In this document: piece by piece, positions 19,528-36,528 of the stretch
Layout of the letters: each line of letters starts with the position of its first letter
Position numbering within the stretch: position 1 is the first letter of the stretch
Origin: a virus
Lineage: Duplodnaviria; Heunggongvirae; Uroviricota; Caudoviricetes
Length of the DNA stretch: 37,264 nt
Direction: 5' to 3' (one strand)
IMG/VR virus record: IMGVR_UViG_2778261068_000007
Coordinates: 1-37,264 of that record
The notes under the pieces: model-generated
What the model saw: the letters and a program-made list of their open reading frames with translations, nothing else
Told to the model about the DNA's origin: nothing
Databases searched by the model: none
Made by a program: the position numbers and the translations under genes

Positions 19528-20105
19528 GCGCAGAACTCATGCGGCTACTGAGCAACATCATCCGCACCGGGATCATCTCTGAAATTGATGAGGAATCCTG
19601 GCGCGTTCGCGTTCGCAGCGGCGAACTGGAAACAGGCTGGTTGCGCTGGAACACCACGCGCGCGGGAGCCTTCAATGTGTGGCTGCCGCCATCAGTGGGC
19701 GAACAGGTGGTAATTGCCTGCATCGGCGGCAACCCGGAAACCGCCATGATAATTGGCAGCCTGTGGAGTGATGCCAATCCGGCCCCCGGCAAAAGCCTGA
19801 AAGAAATCGTGGTCAGCGCGCCGGATGGCGCGGTGTTCCGCTACGACGCGGACGCAGGCGCACTGAGCGCCAGCGGCATGAAAACGGCCACCCTGCAGGC
19901 ATCCGTCAGCGTGAAACTGGACACGCCCGTCGTGGAGTGCACAAACCTTCTGAAAACAGCCGAGATTGACGTCACAAAAGGGGGAAAGATGAGCGGCAAT
20001 ATCACGCACAGCGGCGGCAATTTCACCTCAAACGGCATCACTGTGCATACGCATAAACACGGTGGCGTTAAAGGTGGCAGCGATTCAACAGGAGGCCCGC
20101 AGTGA
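19524..20105 (+). CDS. V: Baseplate spike protein, P2 gpV-like
   Basis: IRTGII, WLRW, APSVGEQV, FPDGAV, TPVVECTN, KGGKMSGNITHSGG and VHTHKH blocks match remembered gpV; GTG start overlapping the S stop. Confidence 0.85.
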   Translation: MSAELMRLLSNIIRTGIISEIDEESWRVRVRSGELETGWLRWNTTRAGAFNVWLPPSVGEQVVIACIGGNPETAMIIGSLWSDANPAPGKSLKEIVVSAPDGAVFRYDADAGALSASGMKTATLQASVSVKLDTPVVECTNLLKTAEIDVTKGGKMSGNITHSGGNFTSNGITVHTHKHGGVKGGSDSTGGPQ

Positions 20106-20452
20106 CAACCCGCTACACAGGAATGAACCCGGACGGGACGGGAAACCTGAACGATATGGAGCACCTGAAACAGTCAGTCAGGGACATCCTGACCACTCCG
20201 CTGGCAAGCCGGGTTATGCGACGAGAATATGGCAGTCTTGTCCCTGATTTGATTGACGAACCCATGAATAACACTACGCGTCTGCAATGCATGAGCGCTG
20301 CTGTGATTGCACTGACACGATGGGAGCCACGCATTGCCCTGAACGCCATTGATGTTGTCTGGAAGGCGGGAGGCCGCGCCGGGGTGACACTATCGGGTAC
20401 TGTCATTCAGACCATGCAGAATGTTGAATTAACCATCACGCTGAGGGAATAA
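20102..20452 (+). CDS. W: Baseplate wedge protein, P2 gpW-like
   Basis: MTTRYTGMN...SRVMRREYGSL...WEPR parallels remembered gpW (MTARYLGMN...SRVMRRDYGSL...WEPR). Confidence 0.85.
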   Translation: MTTRYTGMNPDGTGNLNDMEHLKQSVRDILTTPLASRVMRREYGSLVPDLIDEPMNNTTRLQCMSAAVIALTRWEPRIALNAIDVVWKAGGRAGVTLSGTVIQTMQNVELTITLRE

Positions 20453-20455
20453 ATC

Positions 20456-21352
20456 ATGCCTGCCGTTGACCTTTCACAGTTACCGGAACCCGCCATCATC
20501 GCGGAGCCTGATTTTGAGGCAATTCTGGCTGATACAAAGGGCATGATGATTGCGGCTTATCCGGCCGAACAGCGCGCCGCCGTCTCCGCAGCGCTGGAGC
20601 TGGAATCGGAACCCCTGAACGTTATCGCCCAGACAACAGCATTTCGTGAAATGCTGTTACGCCAGCGGGTCAACGAGGGCGCACGCGCCTGCATGTTAAG
20701 CCACAGCGCCGGGACAGACCTGGACAACCTCGCAGGTAATATGAACACAAAGCGCCTGGTTATCACTCCGGCAACGGATACCACCGACGCGGTGATGGAA
20801 AGCGACACCTCGCTGAGACTGCGGGCGCAGCGGGCGTACGACGGGCTGAGCGTTGCTGGCCCGTCAGGTGCATACGAGTATTTTGCCCGCAGTGCCAGCG
20901 GTCTGGTGCGTGATGCGCGGGCTATCAGTCCCTCTCCGGCAAATGTGACGGTTTCCATCCTGTCCACTGAAGGCGACGGCACAGCAACGGAGGCATTGCT
21001 CAATACCGTTCGCACTGCTCTGAACGCGGAGGACACTCGCCCGGTGGCCGACCGCCTGACCGTACAGAGCGCCAGAATCGTGACATGGCGGCTGAATGCA
21101 AAACTGTACTTTTACCCCGGCCCGGAATCCGAACCTATTCTGGCCGCGGCGGAATCGTCATTCAGGAAGTGGCTGGCTGAACAGGGGCTTATCGGTCAGG
21201 ACGTGGCGTTGTCCGCCATTGCTGCCGCACTGCATGTGCACGGTGTGCAACGCGTGGAGATAATCGAACCCACACAGAATCTGGCCATCAGCGACATACA
21301 GGCGGCGCGTTGTGAGTCATTCACCATCAGCGAAGGTGGGCGCAATGAGTAA
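20456..21352 (+). CDS. J: Baseplate protein, P2 gpJ-like
   Basis: 298 aa (P2 J about 302 aa), conserved W-J-I-H order. Confidence 0.85.
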   Translation: MPAVDLSQLPEPAIIAEPDFEAILADTKGMMIAAYPAEQRAAVSAALELESEPLNVIAQTTAFREMLLRQRVNEGARACMLSHSAGTDLDNLAGNMNTKRLVITPATDTTDAVMESDTSLRLRAQRAYDGLSVAGPSGAYEYFARSASGLVRDARAISPSPANVTVSILSTEGDGTATEALLNTVRTALNAEDTRPVADRLTVQSARIVTWRLNAKLYFYPGPESEPILAAAESSFRKWLAEQGLIGQDVALSAIAAALHVHGVQRVEIIEPTQNLAISDIQAARCESFTISEGGRNE

Positions 21353-21875
21353 TTCGTTGTTACCACCATCAGCCAGCAATTTCATGCGTTGTGCCGAAGC
21401 CGTCGGAACGCGCATTACAGACATTCCGGTAGACCTCAACACGCTGTGGTCGCCGGACACATGCCCGGTGCATCTGCTGCCTTATCTCGCCTGGGCGTTT
21501 TCCGTTGACCGCTGGGACCGCAACTGGCCGGAGGAAACAAAGCGCCAGGTGATTCGCGATGCGTGGCTGATACACCGACACAAGGGGACCATCAGCGCAC
21601 TGCGCCGGGCCATTGAGCCGCTGGGATACCTCATTCGCGTGTCTGAGTGGTGGGAGTTCGGCGGAGAACCGGGAACATTTACCGTTGAAGTCGGCACGCT
21701 GGACAGCGGTGTGACGGAGGAAATGTATCTGGAAATGGAGCGGTTGATTGCTGATGCCCGCCCGGTCAGCCGCCACATGACAGGGCTGAATATCATTCAG
21801 GAAATCCCGGGGGATATTTTCGCAGCGGCGGCAACTTATGACGGTGAAGTTATTACCATTTATCCAGGCGATTAA
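21345..21875 (+). CDS. I: Baseplate protein, P2 gpI-like
   Basis: Start ATG 21345 overlapping the J stop; about 176 aa. Confidence 0.8.
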   Translation: MSNSLLPPSASNFMRCAEAVGTRITDIPVDLNTLWSPDTCPVHLLPYLAWAFSVDRWDRNWPEETKRQVIRDAWLIHRHKGTISALRRAIEPLGYLIRVSEWWEFGGEPGTFTVEVGTLDSGVTEEMYLEMERLIADARPVSRHMTGLNIIQEIPGDIFAAAATYDGEVITIYPGD

Positions 21876-21877
21876 GC

Positions 21878-24103
21878 ATGAGCACCACAACACGAAAATT
21901 TAAAACCGTTATCACCGATACGGGTGCAAAAAAATTAGCACAGGCAGCCGCACCAGATGGCAAACCCGTCCGCCTGACACATATGGCCGTGGGTGACGGC
22001 GGCGGTACTTTACCCACGCCAGACAGTAAGCAGACCCGTCTCGTGCATGAGGTGTGGCGACATACCGTTAATCGCGTCTTCCTGGACGCAACACATCAGA
22101 ACCGCATTATTGCGGAGCTGGTTATTCCTCCAGAAACGGGCGGATTCTGGATCCGGGAAATTGGTGTGTTTGATGAGCACGGCGATTTAATCGCGGTGGG
22201 CAATACTGCCGAAAGTTACAAGCCAGCCGTTGCCGAAGGGTCCGGGCGTGCGCAAACATTTCGCACCATCCTGACCGTATCCAGCACGGCCACCGTGGCG
22301 CTTACCGTGGATAACACCATGGTGATGGCCACAGTGGATTACGTGGATGACAAACTAAAAGAGCATGAACAGTCACGACGTCACCCGGATGCCTCGCTGA
22401 CCGCAAAAGGCTTTACTCAGTTAAGCAGTGCGACCAACAGCACGTCTGAAGCACTGGCCGCAACGCCGAAAGCGGTAAAGGCTGCATATGACCTTGCTAA
22501 CAGGAAATATACCGCACAGGATGCCACCACAGAGCAAAAAGGCCTTGTCCAGCTCAGTAGCGCCACTAACAGCGTGTCTGAAACGATGGCGGCAACGCCG
22601 AAAGCGGTAAAGGCCGCCTATGACCTTGCTAACGGGAAATATACTGCACAGGACGCCACCACAGCGCGAAAAGGCCTTGTCCAGCTCAGTAGTGCAACCA
22701 ACAGCCCGTCTGAAACGCTGGCTGCGACGCCAAAAGCTGTTAAGACGGTAATGGATGAAACGAACAAGAAAGCGCCGCTGTCGAGTCCGGCACTCACCGG
22801 AACGCCAACCGCACCAACTGCGCCAAAGGGTACTAACAATACTCAGATAGCAAACACGGCGTTCGTTATGGCCGCGATTGCCGCACTTGTAGACTCATCA
22901 CCTGACGCACTGAATACGCTGAACGAGCTGGCTGCGGCACTGGGCAATGACCCGAACTTTGCGACCACTATGACCAACGCGCTTGCGGGCAAGCAGCCGA
23001 AAGACGCCACCCTGACGGCGCTGGCCGGGCTTGCTACTGCGGCAGACAGGTTTCCGTATTTTACAGGGAATGACACCGCCAGCCTGGCAACTCTGACAAA
23101 AGTCGGGCGGGATATTCTGGCTAAAGCGACCGTTGCCGCCGTTATCGAATACCTCGGTTTGCAGGAAACGGTAGAGTTAGCGGCAGGGGCGGTACCAGCA
23201 ACACGCAAAGTAAACGGGCGTGCGTTAACCAGTGATATAAATGTTACTTCGCAGGATATTTTTAATGGGCAGAGCATTTCTATTGGTGCTAATCAAAACT
23301 TAAATGATTATATGACTCCTGGTCTGTATCATCAGTCGCTCAACGTTAATACAAGCTCTGCATTAAACTACCCGGAGAATGGCGCCGGAAATTTAATTGT
23401 GTTAAAAAATGCTGGCGTAAAACAAATTTATCATGTGTATAACTCCTCAAGAGTGTGGTCACGTAGCAAATATTCATCAGAACCATGGACACCGTGGGCA
23501 CGAGAATATAATTCACAAAGCAAACCGACCCCGGCAGAGCTCGCAGTATTGGCATTAGCTGGCGGTAGCATGTCAGGGAGTATTAAATTTATAAATGATG
23601 CCTTCCTGATTTGGGAAAGGAACACCGACTGGGCGAAAATCGGATTTAAAAATGATTCAGATTCCGATACTGACTCATACCTGTGGTTTGAAACTGGTGA
23701 TAATGGCAATGAATATTTCAAATGGCGTATCAGGGCTGGAAGCGCAACAAAAGACTTGATGTTTTTGAAGTCTGATGCGCTCAGAGTCACTGGTCAGGTT
23801 ATACCATCTAATTACGGTAATTTTGATTCCCGTTATCAGGCTAAAAATACCGCGTCCAAAGCGGCGAATGGCTGGCATAAAGATGCCTCTACGGGAGTTA
23901 TTACACAGTGGGGATATATTTCTAACGCTGGAGCGGGATTAACATTTCCGGTGGCTTTTCCATCCGCCTGCGCAAGCATAACAATTACTAACGCACACGG
24001 GCGATTTGACTACAGTATTGCTGTTAACTCACTATCCAGAACCGGGGCAAAATTTAACAGTGAAGGTAATGGCAATATGTACTGGACAGCTATAGGTTAC
24101 TAA
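21878..24103 (+). CDS. H: Tail fibre protein, P2 gpH-like, with invertible C-terminal variable part
   Basis: 741 aa; conserved N-terminal region, internal 43-aa tandem repeats, AT-rich C-terminal third beginning at the gix-like crossover site (23142-23167). Confidence 0.9.
22409..22760 (+). repeat. About 2.7 tandem copies of a 129-bp repeat inside the tail fibre gene
   Basis: Encodes [44 protein letters not shown] three times; DNA copies nearly identical. Confidence 0.6.
23142..23167. repeat. Left gix/hix-like inversion crossover site
   Basis: ttatcgaatacctcggtttgcaggaa; inverted match to the 26020-26045 site and similar to remembered Mu gix (TTCCTGTAAACCGAGGTTTTGGATAA). Confidence 0.7.
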
Positions 24104-24104
24104 T

Positions 24105-24518
24105 ATGACGATTTATTACAGCCCATCAACGAAAGGTTTTTACGACGATAAATTAAAAAACGACTACCAGAATAATGACTCATGGCCAGAAGACCTTACT
24201 GAAATATCAGAGCGATGGTATAACTATCTTTTGCAAAAGCAGTCAGAAGGAAAAACCATCAATATCAATGAATATGGTCAGCCAGTAGTTACGGAACCAG
24301 AGCCGCCAACTCAGGAAGAGTTAACAGGACAAGCAGAGAGGCAAAAATCTAAACTTCTGGCGGAAGCGGAATCTTTTATATTACCACTGGAGCGAGCCGT
24401 AAAACTGGGGATGGCTACTGATGCTGAGCGAGAAATGCTGGAGTCGTGGGAGCGTTACAGCGTTCTGCTCAGCCGCGTGGATACGGCAAATCCAGAATGG
24501 CCACAAAAGCCTGAATAA
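24105..24518 (+). CDS. G: Tail fibre assembly chaperone, P2 gpG-like
   Basis: 137 aa directly downstream of H; inside the invertible segment. Confidence 0.8.
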
Positions 24519-24523
24519 AAAAT

Positions 24524-24541
24524 AAGGCCCGAACGGGCCTT
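24524..24541. terminator. Bidirectional terminator hairpin between the convergent chaperone genes
   Basis: aaggccc-gaac-gggcctt between the G stop (24518) and the opposite-strand stop (24545), flanked by A/T runs. Confidence 0.6.
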
Positions 24542-24544
24542 CTC

Positions 24545-25078
24545 TCATTCTGGTTGTTCGGGGAACGTGACTGGCAGGACGGAGGTATCCGTAGACTCTA
24601 CTTTCTGCGCGTAGAGCAGCCACTCGGTCAATTTTTGTTTATTCTCAGCAGAAATAATTCCAAGTCGTAGCTGAGAATCCCATAGCTGAGTTTTATCCCT
24701 GACGAGTTGTAACAGGTTTTGCTTCTCATTTTCCGCCTGTTGTCTCTGTTCTTCTTCGGTATATTCCCGCTTTATCACTGCGCCATCTTTGAACATCCAG
24801 TTACCAGAAATATCGACCCGCCTATTGGCTGTAATATCAGGAACCTCAACAACGCTTAAACCTTCGGGATTAATTGTTGATACATCCTTATCTACAGCCA
24901 CAATGATTCCATCGGCAGTGTAAGCAAATTTTATTGTATCTTCCTGAAAGTTTTTCTGTTCTTCATACCAGTTCTTACCGTCTTCCGACCACAACCAGAC
25001 AACACCGAACTGTCGTGTTAATTCATATTGTTCAACGGTTTTTGGATTTCCCGACTTGATGTTTTTTAAATGCATCAT
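24545..25078 (-). CDS. Alternative tail fibre assembly chaperone
   Basis: 177-aa ORF on the opposite strand inside the invertible segment, mirroring G. Confidence 0.75.
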   Translation of the reverse strand: MMHLKNIKSGNPKTVEQYELTRQFGVVWLWSEDGKNWYEEQKNFQEDTIKFAYTADGIIVAVDKDVSTINPEGLSVVEVPDITANRRVDISGNWMFKDGAVIKREYTEEEQRQQAENEKQNLLQLVRDKTQLWDSQLRLGIISAENKQKLTEWLLYAQKVESTDTSVLPVTFPEQPE

Positions 25079-25080
25079 AA

Positions 25081-26070
25081 TTAAATACTTCCCGCATTAT
25101 ACCAGGTGCCATTGATACAATATTGCACTGGCCTTGCCTGTGTTGTATCAATAATTTCATCTTTGTTTGAGTTAACGGAACCTGTAACAACGTAACCAGA
25201 TTTATCGCCCCAGCCAGGACCATTCCATGTTTGCGCTGATGATTTTGTACCTAATCGGATACCTGTAATAAACCGCGTATTACATTCCGCTTTAGTATAT
25301 GCCCCAACATCTGCCGCTGATGGTTTTCGGGTTGTGGTGTAAAACTCTGACCAGTCAGCCTCGAAGCCATAACCATCACGCGCTGAACGATAATAAATAC
25401 CGCCGTTCTTATAATTTACGCGGAACTGAACAGCAGGGCAGCTACCCGCGTTCATATTGAAATGAAGAATTAATGTTGATGCACCTTTTAGGTCTGCATC
25501 ATAAACACCGCTATTCCAGTTCCAGCCAACAGCTTTATCATTTGCAACCCTACTGCCTGTTATCCCTAAAGCAAAAGCAGCCTGCTGATTTTTCGTGTTG
25601 TAGTCACGTCGCCAGCCAGGTAAATACTCTGAACCGTGGTTAATATATATAAATTGTGCATTAGTGGTGCCACCACCGCTAGAGGTACTCGGTGTGGTTA
25701 TACGAATGGTCATGGCGCCTTTATTGCCCATAACTTCAATAACGCAACCCGCAAGGTGAATAAGTCCACATCCGGTGTCAGTAATAATTTTATTATTGCC
25801 GTATGACCAGGAGCATTTACACATCCAGTATGGATGATTGAAGGCCCATTGAGATTCCAGCCATTCAATAAATTGCGCCGTCGTCCAGTTTCCTGCACCT
25901 GTGCTAATAGAACCATGAAAAGAGCGGCAAGCACCTATTGTTTGCGTAAATTTATCTTTGTTTGGAATATCTGCGCCGTTCTGGTTTTTCTGCAACGCAC
26001 CAGAAGCCTGATTTACCGTTTCCTGCAAACCGAGGTTTTTGATAATGGTCGTTTCTGGCCCACATGGCAT
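25081..26070 (-). CDS. Alternative tail fibre C-terminal segment, currently promoterless
   Basis: ORF runs up to and across the right gix-like site; its crossover-encoded peptide NLGLQETV matches H (YLGLQETV); inversion would fuse it to the constant N-terminal part of H. The functional exon is probably 25081..about 26045. Confidence 0.7.
   Translation of the reverse strand: MPCGPETTIIKNLGLQETVNQASGALQKNQNGADIPNKDKFTQTIGACRSFHGSISTGAGNWTTAQFIEWLESQWAFNHPYWMCKCSWSYGNNKIITDTGCGLIHLAGCVIEVMGNKGAMTIRITTPSTSSGGGTTNAQFIYINHGSEYLPGWRRDYNTKNQQAAFALGITGSRVANDKAVGWNWNSGVYDADLKGASTLILHFNMNAGSCPAVQFRVNYKNGGIYYRSARDGYGFEADWSEFYTTTRKPSAADVGAYTKAECNTRFITGIRLGTKSSAQTWNGPGWGDKSGYVVTGSVNSNKDEIIDTTQARPVQYCINGTWYNAGSI
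26020..26045. repeat. Right gix/hix-like inversion crossover site
   Basis: ttcctgcaaaccgaggtttttgataa; its reverse complement differs from the left site at about 3 of 26 positions. Confidence 0.7.
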
Positions 26071-26099
26071 GATTTGTGCCTTTGAGCGGGAGATTCAAC

Positions 26100-26699
26100 G
26101 TGCTGATTGGCTATGTAAGGGTATCAACAAATGACCAGAACACGGATTTGCAACGCAATGCGCTCAATAGCGCAGGATGTGAACTGATTTTTGAAGATAA
26201 AATCAGCGGAACAAAGTCAGCCAGACCGGGATTGAAAAAACTGCTCAGAACACTGTCAGAAGGCGATACGCTGGTTGTCTGGAAACTGGACAGGCTGGGC
26301 AGAAGCATGAAACACCTGATCACACTGATTGAGGAATTACGGGAAAAAGGTGTCAATTTTCGTAGTCTGACGGACAGCATTGACACATCAACACCCATGG
26401 GGCGCTTCTTTTTTCACGTCATGGGGGCTTTAGCTGAAATGGAACGCGAACTGATAGTTGAACGTACCAGGGCAGGACTGGCAGCAGCCCGCGCACAGGG
26501 GCGCATTGGTGGGCGTCGCCCGAAACTGACAAAAGAGCAACATGAGCAAATAGCAAGGCTGATTAAAAACGGCCATGACAGAAAACAACTGGCCATAATT
26601 TACGGTATTGGTATATCGACGATTTATCGTTACCACCCCGCGGGAGAATCAACCGGAACAACAGAGAAGACCAGAGGAAACAAAAAACCGCTAATCTGA
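26100..26699 (+). CDS. Serine DNA invertase, Hin/Gin/Cin/Pin family
   Basis: LIGYVRVSTNDQNTDLQRNAL...LVVWKLDRLGRS...GRFFFHVMGALAEMERELIVERT...AAARAQGRIGGRRPKLT matches the remembered Hin sequence including the catalytic Ser region; GTG start 26100 with RBS gggag. Confidence 0.9.
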   Translation: MLIGYVRVSTNDQNTDLQRNALNSAGCELIFEDKISGTKSARPGLKKLLRTLSEGDTLVVWKLDRLGRSMKHLITLIEELREKGVNFRSLTDSIDTSTPMGRFFFHVMGALAEMERELIVERTRAGLAAARAQGRIGGRRPKLTKEQHEQIARLIKNGHDRKQLAIIYGIGISTIYRYHPAGESTGTTEKTRGNKKPLI

Positions 26700-26714
26700 T
26701 CATTAGCGGTTTTG
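26683..26714. terminator. Bidirectional terminator between invertase and gpU
   Basis: aaaccgctaat-ctgatc-attagcggttt perfect 11-bp stem with flanking A and T runs; invertase stop lies in the loop. Confidence 0.55.
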
Positions 26715-26721
26715 CATTAAA

Positions 26722-27210
26722 TCAGAACAACCCTTTAACTGAACTGGTCGCGCTGTTAAGGGATGCTGTCACCTTATCTTTAAGGCCGGACAGCATATCA
26801 CTGAACGCTGAGGATTGCAGGCGTTCCCGCAAATCCTCATCACAGCGTTCAAGGGTCAGGGAAAACTCTATCTTTTTCGCTTTCCCGTAGCGATCCAGTT
26901 CAGAGCGGGTCGTGCTCGTTTCGGTCAGAACATACATGCCGTAAATCTGCCCGACGCCATCAATCAGGGGCCACGGGCGCCCCATATACGCCTGCGTGGT
27001 CAGCAGCGACAGCGACACTTCGCCGCCTGTAATCTCAGGATAAAGCACGCCGGAAAGAACGATGCGATCATCACCTGCACCGATATACTGCCAGCTTGCT
27101 GAACGGTTAACGCGCTCGTTTTTCACATGTCGCCAGCTTTTGTTTTGCTGTAACTGCTGATGCGGTAATGTGCGCAACTCAAAAACAAACATGCCGTAGA
27201 TCATCATCAT
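26722..27210 (-). CDS. U: Tail protein, P2 gpU-like
   Basis: MMMIYGMFVFELRTLPHQ...VLYPEITGG...WPLIDGVGQIYGMYV parallels remembered gpU (MMLALGMFVFMRQTLPHQ...VLYPELTGG...WPLLDGTGMIYGMYV). Confidence 0.85.
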   Translation of the reverse strand: MMMIYGMFVFELRTLPHQQLQQNKSWRHVKNERVNRSASWQYIGAGDDRIVLSGVLYPEITGGEVSLSLLTTQAYMGRPWPLIDGVGQIYGMYVLTETSTTRSELDRYGKAKKIEFSLTLERCDEDLRERLQSSAFSDMLSGLKDKVTASLNSATSSVKGLF

Positions 27211-27221
27211 GGCACGACTCC

Positions 27222-30059
27222 TTACTCTTTATCATAAAAGCTGCCACGCCCGGCACGGGTACGCCGCTCCAGTTCTGCCCTGACCATTTCGCCGACCAGT
27301 TTCGCCAGTTCGCGGGGATTCTGCGTAACAACGTTATGCAGATGGACATGAATTTCACCACCAAATCCGGGGGTCGCAGCCTCCCGGCTGCGGGAAGATG
27401 CGGAAACGGGCGCAACTGGCGCACGTGCGGCCTCCACGACCGGACGGGAGCTTGCTGCAACAACAGGGGGCAGCGCCGGATATAACGGAGCCGGGGGCGC
27501 GGGAGTGATATTGATTGCAGGAAGAGCCTTGTTGCTCTGCGCAACCTTTCGCTCCTGCCACTCCCCACGAACAGCAAGCGCACGGGGCAAATTCTTAAAG
27601 ACAATATCACCGGGGCCGATACGCTTTTTCGTCTCATCAACCAGCTTGCCTGTGTTATCTGCAATTTTGCTGAGCCTGCGCAGCGTGCCAGTGTTGTTGT
27701 CCGTGAGCGGCTTGTTGTCTTTAGGCTTATCGCCTCCGGTCCCTGTTTCCGCAGACTTCGGTGGATTGATTTTTGCCAGGTCCCCCTGAAGCAAAGCAAC
27801 CTTGTCCTGAAGAATGGCCGCACGCTGCGCGTCTTCGATTTTCTTTCTCGCCCTTTCCGCTTCATCTGGAAGGACACCAAGTTTTTCCAGTATCCATGCC
27901 AGCGTATCCAGCAGCATTTTTGCAGGCGTCAGGACAAGCTGTAACGCACCGCCAAGAACGTTGCCGAATACCTCGCCAGCACTGGTGTATTTATCCAGCG
28001 TTTCCTTGCTGGATTCCATCGGTGACAGCAGCGATGTAAACCAGTTAAAGACCTGAATCACGCCATCACGAACCAGTTCGAAAACAGGGCCAAACCGTTC
28101 AAAGGTTTCGCGTAACGGGGCCAGCCGCTCCATAATCCCGCTGAACACCCCGGAAAAAAATGCCCTGATTGGGTCCCAGTATTTCCAGATGAGAACGGCA
28201 GCTCCGGCAAGCGCAGCTACGATAAGACCGACCGGGCTGAACAACGCCCCGATAGCGCCTCCCAGTAAAGAGACGGAACCCGACGCCATTCCCCACAACG
28301 CTGGCAGGACCCTGACAGCATTCATTGATCCGGTCAGGAGGGAAAAACCAAGACGCAGTTTTGCCAGCGGGCCAGCAAGCACCCCAAGAGCCAGTGACAA
28401 CGAGCCAACCGTTGCAGTCATTGCCAGCAACGCACCGCCTGCAATCAGTAGCTGGCGCGTCAGTACCGGATGGGCCTGCGCCAGCGAGGTGATTTTTTCA
28501 AGCACCCGCGTGAGCCACTGCGTGACAGAACGCAGCGGACCGTCAACCAGATCACTGATGCGAATACGAAGACCTTCCCATGCGCTGTCGAGATTTTTCA
28601 GGTCCCCATCAAGATTATCGGCCATTACTTTTGCGACGCGATCGGCCTCTCCCCTTGCCCCCTGCAATTCTCTGGTCAGTTTTTGCAGCTCTCCTGAACC
28701 AGCCGCCGCAACAAGCGTCTGCAAACCAACGAACGCCTCTTCTCCGGCGATGTCCTTGAAGAAGGAGACCTGGTCCACCTGTCCGTATTTTTGTGTCGCC
28801 TTATAGAGATCAAGCAGCACATCCTCCATCGGGCGCATTTTGCCTCTGGCGTCAGCAACTGACACCCCCAGCTCTTTCAGTGCATCAGCCGCAGCTTTTG
28901 GCGGTGATGCAAGGCGGGACAGACTTGCGCGCATGGCCGTACCAGCATCGCTTCCGCGAAGACCATTATTGGCAAGCATCCCGGCCATGGCCGCCGCTTC
29001 TTCAAGACTGATACCAAGTTTTGCGGCAACCGGACCGGTATACTTCATGGTTTCGCCCAGCGCGCGTAAATCAGTATTGGTCCGGGTGAATGCCGCTGTC
29101 AGCGTATCGCCAACCCGGTCCATTTGATCGGCTGTCAGGTTGAACTGTGTGAGGATATTGGAGCCTATATCAGCCGTCTCGCCGAGTTCGACGCCACCTG
29201 CCAGCGCCATATTAAGAACACCGGGCAATGCGGCCTGAATGGCCTGCGGAGTAAAACCAGCCATTGCCAGAAAGCTCTGCCCACTGGCGGCATCACTCGC
29301 AGTAAACTGTGTTTCAGAGCCAAGTTTTAACGCCTGCTCACGCAGCGCCTTAAACTGCGGGCTGTTTTTGTCGATTCGCGTCAGTGCCTGAACGCGGGAC
29401 ATCTCTTTCCCGAACCCGATCGCAGGCTGCAAAAAACGCCCGGCAGCATAGCCGCCAGCCGCTGCCGCACCAATTGCCAGCGCACCACCTGTTTTCAGTT
29501 TTCCCGCAGTTTCCTGCGCGCGCGAATACCGCTCACGCGCCCGCGTTACACGCGCAAGCGCCTGCCGCTCGCGTTCAAGCTGGTTGTTGTATTGTTCGGT
29601 GCGTCTGATGGCCTGCTGAATGGTGTTATCGCTGCCTGTCAGGGAAATGCCGTGGCGTTTCAGCTCTCCGCCAAGCTCCCGCATTTTCTGAATTTCCCGC
29701 GTGCGCGATTCATTCAGGCGTTCAAGCCGGGTGCTTAACTGCTGCATCAGCTTTTGTTGTTTTTCGCTGAGCACAGTACCCGTGCGTTGTAACTGATGAA
29801 GGGCGTTAAGCTGGCGTCGTGCTTTCACGATGCCAGCATCCGCTTTACTGACAGCATCGCGGGCGCGCTCAAATGAACGCGCCTGACGCTCGAGATTTTT
29901 GATTGCCCCCTGTGTTCGCTGGATGGAGTCACCAAGCTGTCCCATCAGGCGGCGGGCGTTTTCGGCTGGCCGGGTCAGCCTGTCAACAGCACTGAAGGCG
30001 ACCCGGATGTCAAGAGTCTTCATTGTCTGCATTCCCGCTGCGAAGTGCCGCCCGCTCAC
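27222..30059 (-). CDS. T: Tail tape measure protein, P2 gpT-like
   Basis: 945-aa Ala/Gly-rich protein with coiled-coil N-terminal region, between the E/E' chaperones and U. Confidence 0.85.
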   Translation of the reverse strand: MSGRHFAAGMQTMKTLDIRVAFSAVDRLTRPAENARRLMGQLGDSIQRTQGAIKNLERQARSFERARDAVSKADAGIVKARRQLNALHQLQRTGTVLSEKQQKLMQQLSTRLERLNESRTREIQKMRELGGELKRHGISLTGSDNTIQQAIRRTEQYNNQLERERQALARVTRARERYSRAQETAGKLKTGGALAIGAAAAGGYAAGRFLQPAIGFGKEMSRVQALTRIDKNSPQFKALREQALKLGSETQFTASDAASGQSFLAMAGFTPQAIQAALPGVLNMALAGGVELGETADIGSNILTQFNLTADQMDRVGDTLTAAFTRTNTDLRALGETMKYTGPVAAKLGISLEEAAAMAGMLANNGLRGSDAGTAMRASLSRLASPPKAAADALKELGVSVADARGKMRPMEDVLLDLYKATQKYGQVDQVSFFKDIAGEEAFVGLQTLVAAAGSGELQKLTRELQGARGEADRVAKVMADNLDGDLKNLDSAWEGLRIRISDLVDGPLRSVTQWLTRVLEKITSLAQAHPVLTRQLLIAGGALLAMTATVGSLSLALGVLAGPLAKLRLGFSLLTGSMNAVRVLPALWGMASGSVSLLGGAIGALFSPVGLIVAALAGAAVLIWKYWDPIRAFFSGVFSGIMERLAPLRETFERFGPVFELVRDGVIQVFNWFTSLLSPMESSKETLDKYTSAGEVFGNVLGGALQLVLTPAKMLLDTLAWILEKLGVLPDEAERARKKIEDAQRAAILQDKVALLQGDLAKINPPKSAETGTGGDKPKDNKPLTDNNTGTLRRLSKIADNTGKLVDETKKRIGPGDIVFKNLPRALAVRGEWQERKVAQSNKALPAINITPAPPAPLYPALPPVVAASSRPVVEAARAPVAPVSASSRSREAATPGFGGEIHVHLHNVVTQNPRELAKLVGEMVRAELERRTRAGRGSFYDKE

Positions 30060-30228
30060 GCCAGCTAACCACTTCGCCGGGCGTCATCATGAAGATTTCG
30101 GCGGGCGACCAGTTAAAAATAACGGCAATATCTGCCACAAAGTCTTCTATGTGCTCAAAGCACACAACCGTGATCAGGCTTCCGTCGCCTGTTCGTTCTT
30201 CCCGCCAGAGTCCGCACCGCTCAAAAAA
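30010..30228 (-). CDS. E' extension reached by programmed -1 frameshift from E
   Basis: In the E reading frame the - strand reads gta aat ttt ttg agc (heptamer T TTT TTG); a -1 slip continues as FERCGLWREER... in the overlapping ORF (track ORF 30010..30246), ending inside the start of T. Confidence 0.5.
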   Translation of the reverse strand, partial: FFERCGLWREERTGDGSLITVVCFEHIEDFVADIAVIFNWSPAEIFMMTPGEVVSWRERAALRSGNADNEDS

Positions 30229-30539
30229 TTTACGGCAACCACACATAACTGAATAAAGTCACGGGATGCCATTTTTTTGATCGTCACTTCATCCAGTCGC
30301 GGTGATGTCACGCGTGACAACAGCGTAAACATGGCTTCCGCTTTCAGATTCAGCACATCAGACAGCGACAAATCTCGCAGAGATCCAGCCTGCTCAATAG
30401 CCCCGGTGATCTCCACATACGTGATTTTTTCGCCGCCTCGCTCAATTGGCTGGGTAAGTTTTACGCCACGCTCGCTGGTTTCTTTCACAGTGTCAGTAAC
30501 TACCGTGTTTTCGGTATCGATGTTTTTCGTCTCTTTCAT
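30174..30539 (-). CDS. E: Tail assembly chaperone, P2 gpE-like
   Basis: Immediately upstream of T; ends shortly after a TTTTTTG slippery heptamer. Confidence 0.65.
   Translation of the reverse strand: MKETKNIDTENTVVTDTVKETSERGVKLTQPIERGGEKITYVEITGAIEQAGSLRDLSLSDVLNLKAEAMFTLLSRVTSPRLDEVTIKKMASRDFIQLCVVAVNFLSGADSGGKNEQATEA
30222..30228 (-). other. Slippery heptamer TTTTTTG for the E/E' frameshift
   Basis: + strand caaaaaa at 30222-30228; the same heptamer I recall for P2 E/E'. Confidence 0.6.
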
Positions 30540-30593
30540 CAGAAAACTCCTTTCAGTCAGAGGCGACGCACTGCGCCGCCTGCATATTACTTA

Positions 30594-31106
30594 TCAGCCG
30601 AGCCCAAGCGCGGAGCGGATGCGGTCGGGTACAATGTCCTTGCCATCCTTCCGGTAGATGTGGTTCGCCAGGTCAATTTCCCACACCGGACGATCGTTAA
30701 TACTCAGCTTGTAGTAGGTGTTTTTGACAGCGTAAGTGTGTGACGTGGCTTCGCCCTGTTTGGCCTCCCCCATATCAATTTCCGTCACACGCCCGCGCAT
30801 CTCGATTTCATACAGGTCGCTTTCTGCATCGGTGTAGTATTCACCCGCAAAACGCAGCAGCGTGCCGTCCATTGTTCCGCCATATTTAAGGAACAGCGCA
30901 CGAACGGCGCCACCCATGACAAAACTCGCATCAAGCGCGGAATCGTCCAGGCCGAGGTCGATACTCACCGCTCCCAGCATGCCACCACCACGATAGCTGT
31001 CGGTTTTACGCGTCAGTTTAGGCGGGGTGACAGACGTCACCTTACCCACTTCATTTTCACCATCCACAAACAGCGTAAAAAAACGAAGATGTTTTGGTAC
31101 GGCCAT
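30594..31106 (-). CDS. FII: Tail tube protein, P2 gpFII-like
   Basis: 170 aa (P2 FII about 172 aa), downstream of the sheath gene. Confidence 0.85.
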   Translation of the reverse strand: MAVPKHLRFFTLFVDGENEVGKVTSVTPPKLTRKTDSYRGGGMLGAVSIDLGLDDSALDASFVMGGAVRALFLKYGGTMDGTLLRFAGEYYTDAESDLYEIEMRGRVTEIDMGEAKQGEATSHTYAVKNTYYKLSINDRPVWEIDLANHIYRKDGKDIVPDRIRSALGLG

Positions 31107-32290
31107 TAAGCACCTCCAAGCACTGCAAATGCAGGACCAAAGAACTCATCAGTGAACGCCTGGTAAAGCTCCGCATCTTCCAGCGGAGGAATGGGCGTAT
31201 ATTTATAGCGAATACGCACGCGCCCCTGTCGTAATTCTGTGGTGCTGTTATCCACGATGTCATACCAGCACGATGCGCCAATCAGTTTCCCGGCAGTAAC
31301 CAGCGAATCCAGTTTTGCCCTGATGCCACTGATGACGTCCTTCACGTTCGCGGGCGTCAGTGGACTGTCGATGGTTTCAAACTGCGCTTCCGCAATTGAA
31401 TCAGCCAGCACCTGTGCGGTTCGGGTATACACCTCAAAGATGTAGGCGTTCGTTTCCGGTGTGCGGTTGCCCCAGAAGCGGAACCCGTTGCGGCGAATGA
31501 TGGTTGTGATTTCTTTGTTGTTGAGGCTGTTGGCGTCGCTGTCATCAGCCTGCAACGACCAGAACACATGCCTGGACATCCCCAGCACATTTTTGACCGG
31601 AACGTTGGACAGCGATTTGTGCCAGCCCTGCTCATGGTCAATGTACGCACGAAGGCCGCACGCATAGGCTGGCGCGGGGAAAACCTCATTCTCGCCACTT
31701 TTCGGGTTGTAAGCGATGAAGTCCGGCCACAGGAGCATCAGCTCGCGTTCGTTGAATTTTTCACGGTATGCAATGGCTTCAGCCATCGTGTTACAGCCAT
31801 GACAGGAGGCATACACAAACGCGCGCAGTTTACCTGCAATCACGCACAGGGATTTTGTCACCGCCTCCGTGTCCAGCCCCGGCGCGGCCAGAATACGCGG
31901 ACGGTATCCGATGCTTTCATCCTGCTCTGCAACAAGCAGCGCATACATCCCCGTATAGCTGCCGTCGGATTCAGAACCACCAATAACCAGTTGATCCTGT
32001 GTTTTTCCGTCTTCTTCTTTGTGTTCAGCCACGCGAACGACGATCACCTTTGTGCTCACCTGGTCTGCAATGGGTTTCAGCGCACGGTACAGCGTCCCCG
32101 TTGTCCCGCATTTTCCCAGCACGTCATTGACGCGGGTCACTAATGCAGGCTTGTTCAGCGGGAACAGCTTCGCGTCCGCATCGTCCGCCGTTGCCACGAT
32201 ACCGATAACGCTGGAATCAACGTCGTTAATTGCTGTTACCAGGTCGGTACTTTCCGTAACGCGGGCGCCATGAAAGCGAGTTTCACTCAT
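31106..32290 (-). CDS. FI: Tail sheath protein, P2 gpFI-like
   Basis: FPLNKP, PRIL..PGLDT, KLRAF, RELM..WPDF, DHEQGWHKSLSNV, RRNGFRFWGNRT and YTRTAQV blocks match remembered gpFI. Confidence 0.9.
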   Translation of the reverse strand: MSETRFHGARVTESTDLVTAINDVDSSVIGIVATADDADAKLFPLNKPALVTRVNDVLGKCGTTGTLYRALKPIADQVSTKVIVVRVAEHKEEDGKTQDQLVIGGSESDGSYTGMYALLVAEQDESIGYRPRILAAPGLDTEAVTKSLCVIAGKLRAFVYASCHGCNTMAEAIAYREKFNERELMLLWPDFIAYNPKSGENEVFPAPAYACGLRAYIDHEQGWHKSLSNVPVKNVLGMSRHVFWSLQADDSDANSLNNKEITTIIRRNGFRFWGNRTPETNAYIFEVYTRTAQVLADSIAEAQFETIDSPLTPANVKDVISGIRAKLDSLVTAGKLIGASCWYDIVDNSTTELRQGRVRIRYKYTPIPPLEDAELYQAFTDEFFGPAFAVLGGA

Positions 32291-32447
32291 AGTTCCAGCC
32301 CCTTGTATCCGTTAAATGATTCGGCAACAATCATCACCCACCACGCGCGCAATCTCATCCCTGCGCCGTTCTTGCCGCCCGGCGACAACAAAAAGCAGTA
32401 ACCCCGCCCGCACACACATGCGACCATGCTGCACAGGGAGGGAGCCG

Positions 32448-33548
32448 ATGATTGACACCACCATGCAACTGTTCAACCAGAGTACTGACCCCGTGAAGAT
32501 GCCTGATTTTGATATTCTCGCGGAGGGGAAAACGCTGTCCGGTGTGGCAGAACGCCTGATGAGCCTGTCACTGACCGACAACCGGGGATTTGAAGCAGAC
32601 CAGCTCACCATCACGCTGGATGATGCTGATGGTCAGTTGCAGTTGCCGCCACGGGGCGCTCGCCTGACGGTTCTCATTGGCTGGAAAGGCGAACCGCTGA
32701 CAGAAAAAGGCACTTACATTGTTGATGAAATTGCTCATGAAGGACCGCCCGACAGACTGACCATTTCAGCCAGAAGCGCAGATTTTCGGGATGAATTTAA
32801 CGTCAAGCGCGAAGTATCCTGGCATGATGTGACCGTTGAACGCGTGGTGTCTGCAATTGCTCACCGATACGGCCTGAAACCGCAAATCAGCGAAATGCTG
32901 ATGGATATCGAAATCGACCACGCAGACCAGACCGAAGAAAGCGACATGTCCTTCCTTACACGCATGGCGGAAATGTTGGGCGCAATCACCACGGTAAAAA
33001 GCGGTAATCTGTTATTCATTATGCCAGGTGGTGGCGTGAACGCGCAGGGAAAACCATTGCCATCGTTTGCCATCACACGCAGCAGCGGCGATCGCCATCA
33101 GTTTCGCATTGCTGACCGCGAGGCGTATACAGGTGTACGCGCCTACTGGCTTGATCTTAATTACGGGAAAAAGAAAAAAGTCAGCGTGAAACGCCGCAAA
33201 CCGAAAAAGGAGAAAAGCAGCAGCCGGGAAGGCGACTATATGGCAGGCGCGGAAGGCAACGTGTTTGTGTTACGCAAGACTTATCAGAACGAGCAGGCAG
33301 CAAGACGCGCAGCGGCGGCAAAGTGGCAGCAGCTACAACGCGGAGCCGCATTATTCTCCATCACGCTGGCGCGTGGACGTGCAGAACTCTATCCCGAAAT
33401 GCATGGCACAGTGGCAGGCTTCAAAAGCGACATCGACAATCAGGACTGGATTATCGCAAAAGCCGAGCACACCATTGATGGCAGTGGTTTTATCACGCAG
33501 CTTGAGCTTGAAGCAAAAATCCCGGAATGGATAGCAGAAACAGAGTGA
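32448..33548 (+). CDS. D: Tail protein D, P2 gpD-like
   Basis: Start placed at ATG 32448 after RBS gggagggag (track ORF begins upstream at 32316); about 366 aa. Confidence 0.8.
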   Translation: MIDTTMQLFNQSTDPVKMPDFDILAEGKTLSGVAERLMSLSLTDNRGFEADQLTITLDDADGQLQLPPRGARLTVLIGWKGEPLTEKGTYIVDEIAHEGPPDRLTISARSADFRDEFNVKREVSWHDVTVERVVSAIAHRYGLKPQISEMLMDIEIDHADQTEESDMSFLTRMAEMLGAITTVKSGNLLFIMPGGGVNAQGKPLPSFAITRSSGDRHQFRIADREAYTGVRAYWLDLNYGKKKKVSVKRRKPKKEKSSSREGDYMAGAEGNVFVLRKTYQNEQAARRAAAAKWQQLQRGAALFSITLARGRAELYPEMHGTVAGFKSDIDNQDWIIAKAEHTIDGSGFITQLELEAKIPEWIAETE

Positions 33549-33773: not shown

Positions 33774-35276
33774 ATGAACAAAAAGCTGTATTTATTCCCA
33801 GACTCAAACATTTTTCTACAATGCAAGGCCTTGACGCAGGTAAATTTTTCCGAGATTACTGCTTGTGATGAAGTATGTATCATTATTACAAGGCCCATTC
33901 AGCAAGAGATTGACCGCCAGAAAGGGCAAGGTAATTCCCGCCTATCCAAAAAAGCAAGGAAGGCTGCTAGCCTATTTAATCAAGTAGTTGATTCAACTGA
34001 CATGACTCTTGTTATTCGTGAACGCTCGCCGCGAGTTTTTCTTACCATGGATCTAAGCCTGAAACCATGTGAACAGTTATCTGAACAATTGGATTATCAG
34101 GAGGCCGACGATCGTTTTGTTGGTATTGCGGCAGGGTATTGCGCTGACGATCCAGATTCGGAGGTGGCAATCATTACCAATGATAGCGGTCCACGTTTTT
34201 CAGCAATAAAACATAATATAATCTGCTATAAAGTGCCTTCTTCATGGTTGCTTCCTGCTGAGCCAGATGAAAAGGATAAACAAATTAAATTGCTGGAAGC
34301 TAAGCTGAAGCAATTCACTCAGTCTATGCCCGATTTCAGCATTAAAGCAGCCGATGACGAGCAATTAAATATTGTACTTCCTTATTATACAGCTTTATCT
34401 GAATATGAAGTTGATAATTTGCTTTGTCAACTAACGGATGCATTCCCATTGGTTACAAACTTTGACAATGAACAAACTACCCCACAATCACTAGAAAAAA
34501 TCATCAAGTCATTTAGTCAACAGGAGTATTTCCCTGTATCAGCAGATGATATTTCTCTTTATAAAGAAAAACATTATCCACTTTGGAAAAAGCAGTGTGA
34601 AGAAATACTGAAAAACTGTCATACTCATATTAATCCGAAGGCAATAAAATACCCGCTGTCGTTTTTATTACAAAACACAGGTTATACTATCGCTGAACGT
34701 GCTGTGGTAACATTTACAGCAAAAGGAGATTTTCGTCTGTGTGGATTTAATTGGGAGATAATGGAAGAGCTGACTGAAAGCAAAAGGATTGACCTACCTT
34801 CAGCCCCTACCGCACCCAAAGGAAAATGGCGTAGTGTATGTGGCGTAACAGAAAGAATGCCTTACGCTTGGGGAGCTTTGGAAACACCGCTATCCAGTAT
34901 AATTTCAAAAGAAATTGGTCCTTTGTTATCTCTTACTCCAACAGAAAGGGATAAAAACGATTTTTATTATAAAGAAAAGAGAAATGTGCCAGTTCAAGTT
35001 GTATCGCTGGAATGCGAAGAGTGGCGTCATCAAGTCAAAGAAGAAATATTCCCGTTGTTCGTATATACAGCCAACAAACCAAAGAAAGTGAATGGTGCAA
35101 TTGAGGTGAGAGTTGATGCAAATAACCTTACCAATCCGGTCATTAAAACATTTAAATTAAAAATAACTATAGAAGAACATAGTGCATTTTCAACCATAAC
35201 AGAAATGGTGCAGACATACATTCAAGAGCAGAAGAAAAGACAGAAAAGTTCTATTAGCGCACAAATCAAAACATGA
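33774..35276 (+). CDS. PIN-domain protein with a roughly 350-aa uncharacterised C-terminal region
   Basis: N-terminal 150 aa carries the PIN acidic residues in order (LFPDSNIF, QQEID, EADDRF, IITNDSG); gene and flanks are AT-rich unlike the phage backbone; inserted between D and ogr. Confidence 0.6.
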   Translation: MNKKLYLFPDSNIFLQCKALTQVNFSEITACDEVCIIITRPIQQEIDRQKGQGNSRLSKKARKAASLFNQVVDSTDMTLVIRERSPRVFLTMDLSLKPCEQLSEQLDYQEADDRFVGIAAGYCADDPDSEVAIITNDSGPRFSAIKHNIICYKVPSSWLLPAEPDEKDKQIKLLEAKLKQFTQSMPDFSIKAADDEQLNIVLPYYTALSEYEVDNLLCQLTDAFPLVTNFDNEQTTPQSLEKIIKSFSQQEYFPVSADDISLYKEKHYPLWKKQCEEILKNCHTHINPKAIKYPLSFLLQNTGYTIAERAVVTFTAKGDFRLCGFNWEIMEELTESKRIDLPSAPTAPKGKWRSVCGVTERMPYAWGALETPLSSIISKEIGPLLSLTPTERDKNDFYYKEKRNVPVQVVSLECEEWRHQVKEEIFPLFVYTANKPKKVNGAIEVRVDANNLTNPVIKTFKLKITIEEHSAFSTITEMVQTYIQEQKKRQKSSISAQIKT

Positions 35277-36330: not shown

Positions 36331-36528
36331 ATGATGCAAAATATACGATGCAAAAATTGCTATAAATTACTTGCCCGCGCCTCATTTCACCACATTGAAA
36401 TAAAATGTCCGCGTTGCAAAACCCTTAACCAGGTAACGAGAGCCATCGAGCCCCCCACACACATGAGGAGCTATGACCGTGGGGATCGCAATCCAGCACA
36501 AAACAGCCCATACCCCGGAATACACTAA
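36331..36528 (+). CDS. com: Mu Com-like zinc-finger protein (candidate translational activator)
   Basis: MMQNIRCKNCYKLLARASFHHIEIKCPRCKTLNQV parallels remembered Mu Com (MKSIRCKNCNKLLFKADSFDHIEIRCPRCKRHIIM); RBS aagagg 8 nt upstream; 3' end overlaps the methyltransferase start by 56 nt. Confidence 0.7.
   Translation: MMQNIRCKNCYKLLARASFHHIEIKCPRCKTLNQVTRAIEPPTHMRSYDRGDRNPAQNSPYPGIH

Follow-up and report, generated by a model that had tools for sequence, protein, structure and literature searches.

The locus analysed here is very probably a switch for programmed DNA inversion of the Gin type, carried by a P88-like prophage (Xuanwuvirus, a P2 relative) of Escherichia albertii. By its sequence it is an intact tail-fibre switch of the textbook phage Mu type, which swaps the receptor-binding tip of the fibre. 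This reading is grounded directly in the two crossover sites, an intact enzyme, an in-frame fusion, the natural occurrence of both orientations and a crossover located where it was predicted. The kind of system is an ordinary one that has already been described, since P2 relatives of the P88 type have this module annotated in their records and inversion has been shown experimentally in the P2-like prophages of strain E2348/69 (PMC4272514), which bears out the assignment to a known mechanism class in an earlier note on this DNA.

In the window, i.e. the whole stretch of 37,264 nucleotides that was analysed, the structural genes are of the P2 type, the fibre switch and the invertase occupy the Z/fun position and FI-FII-E-T-U is on the opposite strand, as judged from gene order in comparison with P88 and Shae_phiSM. 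The DNA identity to the P88-like relatives was 82-88% in the parts that were covered. No tRNA gene was found in the window, and searches of the literature on Xuanwuvirus and on E. albertii in combination with P2-like prophages turned up nothing specific to this prophage. The gene order in P2 is H, G, fun(Z) and then FI, without an invertase, and the switch is thus, as previously noted, not part of canonical P2. Every element of the switch layout was found where the earlier note had placed it, and the features are as follows:

21878..23153, + strand: constant N-terminal part of H (codons 1-425), outside the invertible segment; Pfam Phage_tail_fib and three Phage_fiber_2 repeats
23142..23167, + strand: left crossover site (gixL-like), TTATCGAATACC-TC-GGTTTGCAGGAA; 3 mismatches to Mu gix; inside the inverted-repeat arm 23139-23173
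23154..24103, + strand: currently expressed variable tip Sv (H residues 426-741); Pfam Gp53-like_C; mosaic with a distal R-pyocin-like / Gp53-like_C knob
24105..24518, + strand: tail-fibre assembly chaperone of the + tip, 137 aa; Pfam Caudo_TAP, E 7.7e-30
24524..24541, no strand assigned: central GC-rich hairpin between the convergent sets; terminator-like on the - strand only
24545..25078, - strand: silent chaperone, 177 aa, Mu U' homologue; Pfam Caudo_TAP, E 2.6e-34
25081..26033, - strand: silent alternative tip Sv', Mu S' homologue; 81% amino acid identity to Mu S' over 322 aa
26020..26045, - strand: right crossover site (gixR-like), reverse complement TTATCAAAAACC-TC-GGTTTGCAGGAA; 2 mismatches to Mu gix; inside the inverted-repeat arm 26014-26048
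26100..26699, + strand: serine DNA invertase, 199 aa; starts with GTG, like Mu gin; Pfam Resolvase and HTH_7
26118..26189, + strand: candidate recombinational enhancer of the Fis-dependent kind (invertase nt 19-90); P1 cin has an annotated enhancer in the homologous stretch
26684..26713, no strand assigned: terminator hairpin where the invertase gene and the gpU/tail operon converge; 12-pair stem with a - strand T-run; overlaps the invertase stop codon

The two arms of the inverted repeat are 35 nt long and 91% complementary (23139-23173 and 26014-26048). Each of the 26-bp crossover sites within them consists of two half-sites of 12 bp on either side of a 2-bp core, and the two sites share the identical core dinucleotide TC, located at 23154-23155 in the left site, and are inverted relative to each other. 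With the Mu gix sequence TTATCCAAAACC-TC-GGTTTACAGGAA (taken from NC_000929) as the reference, we scanned the entire window on both strands and identified exactly these two gix-type sites, with 2 and 3 mismatches, whereas the next-best 26-mers had at least 9 mismatches, which corresponds to the chance level (shuffled sequences gave a mean of 5.6 hits at <=10 mismatches). A shufflon- or Min-like multi-site system was rejected because no further site better than 9 mismatches was present on either strand of the window. The left site falls within codons 422-430 of the fibre gene (21878-24103; 741 aa), exactly where the GC content drops from 0.587 (22850-23149) to 0.413 (23150-23449), and 54 nt separate the end of the right site from the GTG start of the invertase gene at 26100. 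These observations agree with what had been read from the sequence previously, namely inverted 26-bp sites of the gix/hix family, one of which coincides with the GC drop inside H while the other is located about 55 bp upstream of the invertase start.

The FI-FII-E-T-U block is located on the minus strand and adjoins the invertase gene. We considered the possibility that this block represents a large invertase-mediated inversion in itself, and rejected it because no flanking inverted repeats or gix-like sites above chance were found near 26700 and 32300. In P88 and Shae_phiSM, gpU and the tape-measure gene are also placed on the opposite strand beside the invertase, and the orientation of the block therefore looks like a shared trait.

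Located between the sites are, as proposed, two convergent sets of a fibre C-terminus plus a chaperone, with Sv and the 137-aa chaperone on the + strand and the 177-aa chaperone and Sv' on the - strand. The first 420 amino acids of H, upstream of these sets, are 94% identical to H of P88, and the GC content of the constant part is 0.55-0.59. Among PDB sequences, Sv matched Mu S (5YVQ) over residues 186-267 only, as well as R-pyocin fibres (6CT8, 6CL5, 6CL6), and its distal 104 aa showed less than 45% identity to anything among 50,697 phage records. The 137-aa chaperone resembles Mu U / P2 G only in its C-terminal half (aa 69-137), at 68-75%. The silent 177-aa chaperone has 81% amino acid identity to U' of both Mu and P1, and the silent tip Sv' matched PDB 8JU3 with an E-value of 8e-181. 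When the segment is inverted in silico, the 425 constant codons of H continue in frame into Sv', which yields an open fibre gene of 742 aa followed by its own chaperone gene, just as expected if inversion swaps the tip of the fibre. The chaperone genes start 2 nt past the fibre stop in both orientations, and the 741-aa product and the 742-aa product of the in silico flip are both open.

The claim of a bidirectional terminator at the centre of the segment was only partly upheld. The hairpin is there, and with its - strand tail, ATTTTTTATT, it scores as an intrinsic terminator, whereas the + strand tail, CTCTCATTCTGG, contains no T-run. Homologous central hairpins with the same strand asymmetry were found in Mu, P1 and P88. 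The hairpin at the end of the invertase gene (26684-26713) has an A-run 5' of the stem and a T-run 3' of the stem.

The protein encoded past the right site has the features of a small serine recombinase of the Gin/Cin/Hin family (Din family), to which we assign it. Members of this family have the nucleophilic serine (Ser9 in Gin) in an N-terminal catalytic domain and end in a helix-turn-helix domain. The protein matches the Pfam domains Resolvase (E 2.9e-52) and HTH_7 (E 2.6e-13), shares 76% identity with Gin, 77% with Cin and 86% with the invertase of P88, and aligns with the Gin structure 4M6F over residues 1-182 (E 2e-89). The residues Ser9 (in YVRVSTNDQ), His106 and Met114 (in ALAEMERELI) are all wild type, and the catalytic serine region, which the earlier note had singled out for careful alignment, is intact. 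Ser9 is the residue that links Gin to DNA, and the mutation M114V removes the need for Fis in Gin (PMC3575834); with Met114 in its wild-type form here, the enzyme should require Fis. NCBI contains exactly this 199-aa protein, which matches the Gin start, whereas a longer form of 207 aa, starting at the GTG at 26076, is absent from the protein collection and was rejected.

An enhancer function for the segment 26118-26189 is something that we infer from the homologous position in P1. In the Din family, the cis-acting enhancer with its Fis sites is normally found within the 5' end of the invertase gene, at about 100 bp from one of the sites. The stretch in the window begins at a distance of 86 bp from the middle of the right site and is identical to both P1 and Mu at 57 of its 72 positions, a conservation that is confounded by coding constraint. 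Likewise, a Fis-like core centred at invertase nt 78 is common to all four genes compared, which coding constraint could explain, and the Mu Fis-like core centred at gin nt 41 has lost its terminal C in the window gene and is also absent from P1. A scan for Fis motifs gave no decisive pair of sites.

Both orientations of the segment occur in public assemblies, and not a single one only. Among 10 related E. albertii loci, three are oriented as in the window and seven are flipped, with the orientation break points inside the inverted repeat. The predicted flipped fibre of 742 aa is identical, residue for residue, to EJZ4185251.1 in NCBI, which comes from another assembly. Furthermore, when one of the related loci (L007) was flipped in silico at the central dinucleotides, it became 100.000% identical to another (L012) over 11,850 nt, with 0 mismatches; because these two loci differ by the flip alone in 11.85 kb, the inversion there must be very recent. 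Polymorphisms in the half-sites showed that the outer halves stay with the flanks while the inner halves move with the tips, which confines the crossover to an interval of about 10 bp at the core. In several draft assemblies, the segment was present as a separate contig of 2.85-3.0 kb, and partial tip proteins start inside LGLQETV, within the repeat; such segment-sized stand-alone contigs are suggestive of mixed cultures. The assemblies of the relatives indicate that the segment actually inverts, with the exchange at the core dinucleotide.

We also considered other explanations for these patterns. It is improbable, in our view, that the switch is inoperative in this prophage despite sites and an invertase that look intact, and that the orientations in other strains represent old, fixed events. 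The invertase could for example be unexpressed or the enhancer defective, and a simple consensus scan identified no sigma-70-like promoter 5' of the invertase gene. The reading frame of the invertase is frameshifted or interrupted in two of the 10 relatives (L005 and L013), which indicates that such switches do decay, and the evidence for inversion comes from assemblies of other strains. However, the invertase reading frame is intact in the window and its catalytic residues are conserved, the flipped fibre predicted from the window exists exactly in another assembly, the very recent flip between L007 and L012 occurred next to an invertase that is 99.5% identical to that of the window, and the stand-alone contigs point to mixed cultures.

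Less probable still, and very unlikely, is that the orientation differences arose by RecA-dependent homologous recombination between the 35-nt inverted repeats rather than by the invertase. Any inverted repeat can recombine in principle, and the data are end-states that do not in themselves identify the enzyme. However, 35 nt at a 91% match is near the lower limit for efficient RecA recombination, the crossover maps to an interval of about 10 bp that holds the core dinucleotide, a dedicated and intact Gin homologue is located 54 nt away, and the homologous systems in Mu, P1 and e14 are invertase-dependent. Finally, it is hardly credible that short-read assemblers placed the segment arbitrarily, even if many assemblies break at the repeat and the region is hard to assemble, because the locus is crossed, in one orientation or the other, by cleanly collinear contigs of 90-950 kb, the repeat is so much shorter than Illumina reads that the junctions are read directly, and breaks at so short a repeat are best explained by the presence of both junction types among the reads.

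We favor the hypothesis of an invertase-driven switch, which could work as follows. Dimers of the 199-aa invertase would bind to the two inverted 26-bp sites, and host Fis bound to the enhancer within the 5' end of the invertase gene would promote the formation of a synaptic tetramer on supercoiled DNA. Ser9 would then cleave at the central TC of both sites, one pair of subunits would rotate by 180 degrees, and religation would leave the 2,880-bp segment (23154-26033) inverted. Since the promoter and the first 425 codons of H are located outside the segment, inversion would swap the expressed C-terminal tip together with the downstream chaperone. In the orientation of the window, the product would be the 741-aa fibre with the R-pyocin-like knob, assisted by the 137-aa chaperone, and in the other orientation the 742-aa fibre with the Mu S'-type tip, assisted by the U'-type chaperone. 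With two forms of the fibre, a population of lysogens would release two kinds of virions that differ in receptor specificity. In this scheme, the need for Fis and the enhancer, the rate of inversion and the identity of the receptors are what we infer.

The value of these findings is practical, and the understanding of DNA inversion systems is unchanged. The switch accounts for the breaks and disagreements among draft E. albertii assemblies at this prophage, and for the spurious "tail protein" of 328/329 aa that annotation pipelines call beside the invertase. It also predicts that the phages induced from a single lysogen should be mixed, with two different host ranges. Biological interest centres on the receptor of the knob-type tip, which could matter for the typing or engineering of E. 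albertii phages. One unlikely extension is that the switch has a role beyond the host range of the virion, in that the knob tip, paired with its truncated 137-aa chaperone, may recognise an uncharacterised receptor, or that the invertase or fibre chimeras might cross-flip other Din-type segments in E. albertii or block phage adsorption in the lysogen. PinQ and the e14 chimera StfE2 have been reported to block the adsorption of other phages (PMC12529663).

The closest known mechanism is the G segment of Mu with its invertase Gin. In both systems, the constant part of the fibre is located outside the segment, two convergent sets of tip and chaperone genes flank a central hairpin, and the invertase gene begins with GTG just past the right site. 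Compared with Mu gix, the sites have 2-3 changes in 26 positions and the TC core in common, and the U'-S'-gin block (24438-26535 in the window) has 78% DNA identity to Mu. However, Mu is a transposable phage, whereas the phage that hosts the switch in the window is a P2 relative. The crossover in Mu (position 31966 of the record, in which S starts at 31458) is about 170 codons into S, whereas the constant part in the window is P2 H-like and 425 codons long. Furthermore, the tip expressed in the window is not Mu S but a mosaic that carries an R-pyocin-like knob and is paired with a short chaperone of 137 aa.

The C segment of P1 with Cin, the P segment of e14 with Pin, Min of p15B, Hin of Salmonella and Fin of Fels-2 all belong to the Din family and depend on an enhancer and Fis. 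In the P1 record, an enhancer is annotated at the homologous position in cin, and the cix sites are further from the sites in the window than are the gix sites. Hin differs in that a promoter is flipped rather than coding ends, and Min in that it has six sites.

Among the members of Xuanwuvirus compared (Escherichia phages P88, 503458 and 520873, and Citrobacter phage Shae_phiSM), the P88-like phages have the same order of I, H, tfa, tfa', Sv' and DNA invertase, followed on the other strand by gpU and the tape-measure gene, and the invertase and the duplicate fibre genes are already annotated in their records. The set of Mu S/U- or P2 H/G-type at the + tip and chaperone in P88 is replaced in the window by a knob-type tip, which has no close match (<45% in amino acids) in deposited phage genomes. 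The loci in the P2-like prophages of E. coli O127:H6 E2348/69 are, by their description, of the same kind, with a Hin-family invertase and inverted repeats that swap the C-termini of the fibre (PMC4272514), and both orientations were found by sequencing and PCR to coexist in clonal cultures (Goldberg et al. 2014, PMC4272514). Of the two loci in this EPEC strain, one contains three repeats and produces four variants (PMC4272514), whereas the switch in the window has two sites and two variants.

A comparison of sequences shows that the tail-fibre gene of this P2-type prophage contains an inversion switch that is real, intact and very probably active. The earlier note had proposed a Gin/Hin-type segment at 23142-26699 that inverts to exchange the fibre tip, and this interpretation is borne out by the crossover sites, the in-frame product of the flipped segment, the occurrence of both orientations and a pair of loci that differ by the flip. 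The interval given there is also correct: it opens with the left site's first base and closes with the invertase stop codon. The V, W, J and I baseplate genes, then H, then a chaperone gene surround the segment, the parts of which are:

Features of the invertible segment (coordinates, strand, description)
21878-24103, + strand: fibre gene H, 741 aa, variable tip at residues 426-741
23142-23167: left crossover site, TTATCGAATACC-TC-GGTTTGCAGGAA, inside repeat arm 23139-23173
24105-24518, + strand: chaperone of the + tip, 137 aa, Caudo_TAP
24524-24541: GC-rich central hairpin, T-run on the - strand only
24545-25078, - strand: chaperone of the silent set, 177 aa, Caudo_TAP
25081-26033, - strand: second, silent tip, between the sites
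26020-26045: right crossover site, reverse complement TTATCAAAAACC-TC-GGTTTGCAGGAA, inside repeat arm 26014-26048

The two arms form the longest inverted repeat within 21000-28500 (35 nt, 91% complementary). Compared with the Mu gix site, TTATCCAAAACC-TC-GGTTTACAGGAA, as taken from the annotated G-segment boundaries (NC_000929), the left site has three mismatches in 26 and the right site two, and both carry the identical core dinucleotide TC in inverted orientation. No further gix-like sites were found, every other 26-mer in the window having at least nine mismatches, which is the level of shuffled sequence. The left site coincides exactly with a fall in GC content from 0.587 to 0.413; values of 0.38-0.51 then persist until about 26900, against 0.54-0.61 in the flanks.

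Inversion in silico of 23154-26033 (2,880 bp) lets H read in frame through the site into a 742-aa protein, followed 2 nt past its stop by the 177-aa chaperone gene, and exactly this product is present in NCBI (EJZ4185251.1, on a 161-kb contig). Ten related Escherichia albertii loci were found via contigs encoding the 137-aa chaperone. Three have the orientation of the window (L007, L011, L014) and seven the opposite one (L005, L006, L008, L009, L010, L012, L013), with the 742-aa form of the fibre expressed and a silent 328-aa knob tip adjoining the invertase. Four of the latter (L009, L010, L012, L013) are collinear with the flipped window over 9 kb at about 96% identity; against the native window they align in three pieces, with breaks at 23173/23139 and 26045/26014. 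Furthermore, a flip of locus L007 (ENA ERZ27238212) at its central dinucleotides makes it 100.000% identical over 11,850 nt to L012 (ENA ERZ27238103), and thus the same prophage occurs in both states. The outer half-sites always remain with their flank (TTATCGAATACC on the H side, TTATCAAAAACC on the invertase side) and the inner half-sites (GGTTTACAGGAA or GGTTTGCAGGAA) move with their tip, a pattern which places the crossover within about 10 bp holding the core.

The longest contig carrying the chaperone is only 2-5 kb in 42 of 92 chaperone index blocks, and contigs of 2,848-2,992 bp in several draft assemblies encode incomplete tip proteins (310-316 aa) that start at LGLQETV, QETV or VEL, that is, inside the repeat. 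Such breaks at a 35-nt repeat, shorter than a read, are suggestive of both junction types in the sequenced cultures, although a small-k assembler could produce the same. The 329-aa ORF at 25081-26070 (- strand), a ‘phage tail protein’ in NCBI (WP_105211291.1), is the silent tip extended to an ATG that occurs by chance in the spacer (MPCGPETTIIKN…) separating the right site from the invertase gene. The same flank in flipped relatives yields a 328-aa ‘pyocin knob domain-containing protein’. Neither is a separate gene; both are artefacts of annotation produced by the switch.

The central hairpin at 24524-24541 is the homologue of the U/U' intergenic hairpin in Mu, P1 and P88. It had been described as a bidirectional terminator, which is just half supported because the T-run is on the - strand alone; the + strand tail, CTCTCATTCTGG, lacks one. 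After a flip, the presently silent set would precede the better terminator. The invertase and gpU genes converge on a second hairpin (26684-26713) of 12 pairs, which is preceded by an A-run and followed by a T-run and was scored as a terminator for the minus strand alone. The stop codon of the invertase overlaps this hairpin, the stem of which therefore encodes the last residues of the enzyme (…KKPLI).

The invertase starts at GTG 26100, 54 nt past the right site, with GGGAGA 7 nt upstream. A 207-aa reading from 26076 was rejected, having no NCBI entry, where the exact 199-aa protein is present. The protein combines a Resolvase with an HTH_7 domain; its sequence identity is 76% with Gin, 77% with Cin and 86% with the invertase of P88, and over residues 1-182 it matches the Gin crystal structure 4M6F (E 2e-89). 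It has Ser9, which in Gin forms the covalent DNA link, and wild-type Met114, the change of which to Val makes Gin independent of Fis (PMC3575834). The counterparts of Hin Lys47, Arg48 and Lys51, the roles of which have been described (PMC3798978), are all basic (Lys46, Lys47, Arg50). In two of the ten loci, both flipped, the gene is interrupted, by a frame change near codon 101 in L005 (4262-4857) and by stops or a frame change in L013 (4388-4983); the interruptions may reflect true decay, with the switch frozen as a result, or errors of assembly.

The P1 record annotates an enhancer at cin nt 19-90. The homologous candidate at 26118-26189 is identical to P1 at 57 of 72 positions and to Mu at 57 of 72, begins 86 bp away from the right-site centre and shares with both a Fis-like core centred at nt 78. 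Since it lies in a strongly conserved coding region, we can only infer a Fis/enhancer step there. If inversion follows the known Gin/Hin steps, in which invertase dimers occupy two sites and Fis a 65-bp enhancer about 100 bp from one of them (PMC3575834, PMC3798978), dimers would bind the two crossover sites and Fis such an enhancer, and a tetramer would assemble at a branch of supercoiled DNA. Ser9 would then cleave at the core, one subunit pair would turn 180 degrees and the ends would be religated.

The two tips differ in origin. The stretch 24438-26535, which covers U', S', the 3' end of the + chaperone and the greater part of the invertase gene, is 78% identical to Mu DNA; the silent tip is 81% identical to Mu S' at the protein level and matches PDB 8JU3 (E 8e-181), and its chaperone likewise shows 81% identity to U'. 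The expressed tip has a mosaic structure: the variable part resembles Mu S, P2 H and P88 H (70-76%) at its residues 142-217, while the distal part matches only the R-type pyocin fibre knobs 6CT8, 6CL5 and 6CL6 and Pfam Gp53-like_C. For its last 104 residues (23789-24100), no relative above 45% identity was found in 50,697 phage records; the closest are fibres from Klebsiella jumbo phages and pyocin-like elements of pseudomonads. Similarity of the 137-aa chaperone to Mu U and P2 G is confined to its C-terminal half. P88 has a Mu S/U-type set where the window has the knob-type tip and chaperone, and the window thus differs from its described relatives by cassette replacement. The constant part of H contains three tandem 132-nt repeats (22405-22771; 72-83% identical) that match Pfam Phage_fiber_2 repeats. 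The flipped fibre of L006 has 654 aa, 88 aa (two repeat units) fewer than the 742-aa form, so the repeat number differs between prophages.

Among the other genes, gpU, tape measure, E, FII and FI are on the - strand at 26722-32290 and gpD is on the + strand at 32316-33548, divergent from FI, whereas FI to D form one rightward operon in P2. P88 and Shae_phiSM have the same reversed run, in a comparison that covers gpU to gpE; neither inverted repeats nor gix-like sites were found flanking the gpU-to-FI block. Directly after the gpA replication gene, 7894-8853 (+ strand) encodes a 319-aa ParM/StbA-type actin-like segregation protein, with matches to Pfam StbA_N (E 7e-82) and to the family named ParM_N (in Pfam, the ParM C-terminal domain), and represents cargo of the plasmid-partition type carried by an integrated P2-like prophage. 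Beyond gpD, 33774-35276 (+ strand) encodes a 500-aa protein with PIN_4 at its N-terminus, and 36473-37264 (+ strand) a DNA methylase (N6_N4_Mtase) that continues past the window end; the two may be host genes flanking the prophage or cargo of the hotspot near its end.

Positions 20000-28999 are 100% identical to E. albertii GCA_002965665.1 (contig PTRR01000008.1, locus L011), and our literature search found no paper on this particular prophage. Parts of the query have matches in over 3,400 of the 5,426 complete E. coli genomes, the best of which, at about 84-86% identity, have the same gene series. The nearest deposited phages are P88, 503458, 520873 and Citrobacter phage Shae_phiSM (82-88% DNA identity over the parts in common), P88-like P2 relatives of the genus Xuanwuvirus. 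The earlier note rightly placed the switch outside canonical P2, which has the order H, G, fun(Z), FI and, unlike the window, no invertase. DNA invertases with inverted neighbouring genes have been noted in the Z/fun hotspot of P2-like phages (preprint, 10.1101/2024.10.15.618418), and in clonal cultures of E. coli E2348/69 the fibre segments of two P2-like prophages flip, as Goldberg et al. demonstrated by sequencing and PCR (PMC4272514). The knob-type tip is the only part not yet characterised; the system itself is of an already known kind in a known phage group, and P88 and Shae_phiSM have the same, already annotated layout.
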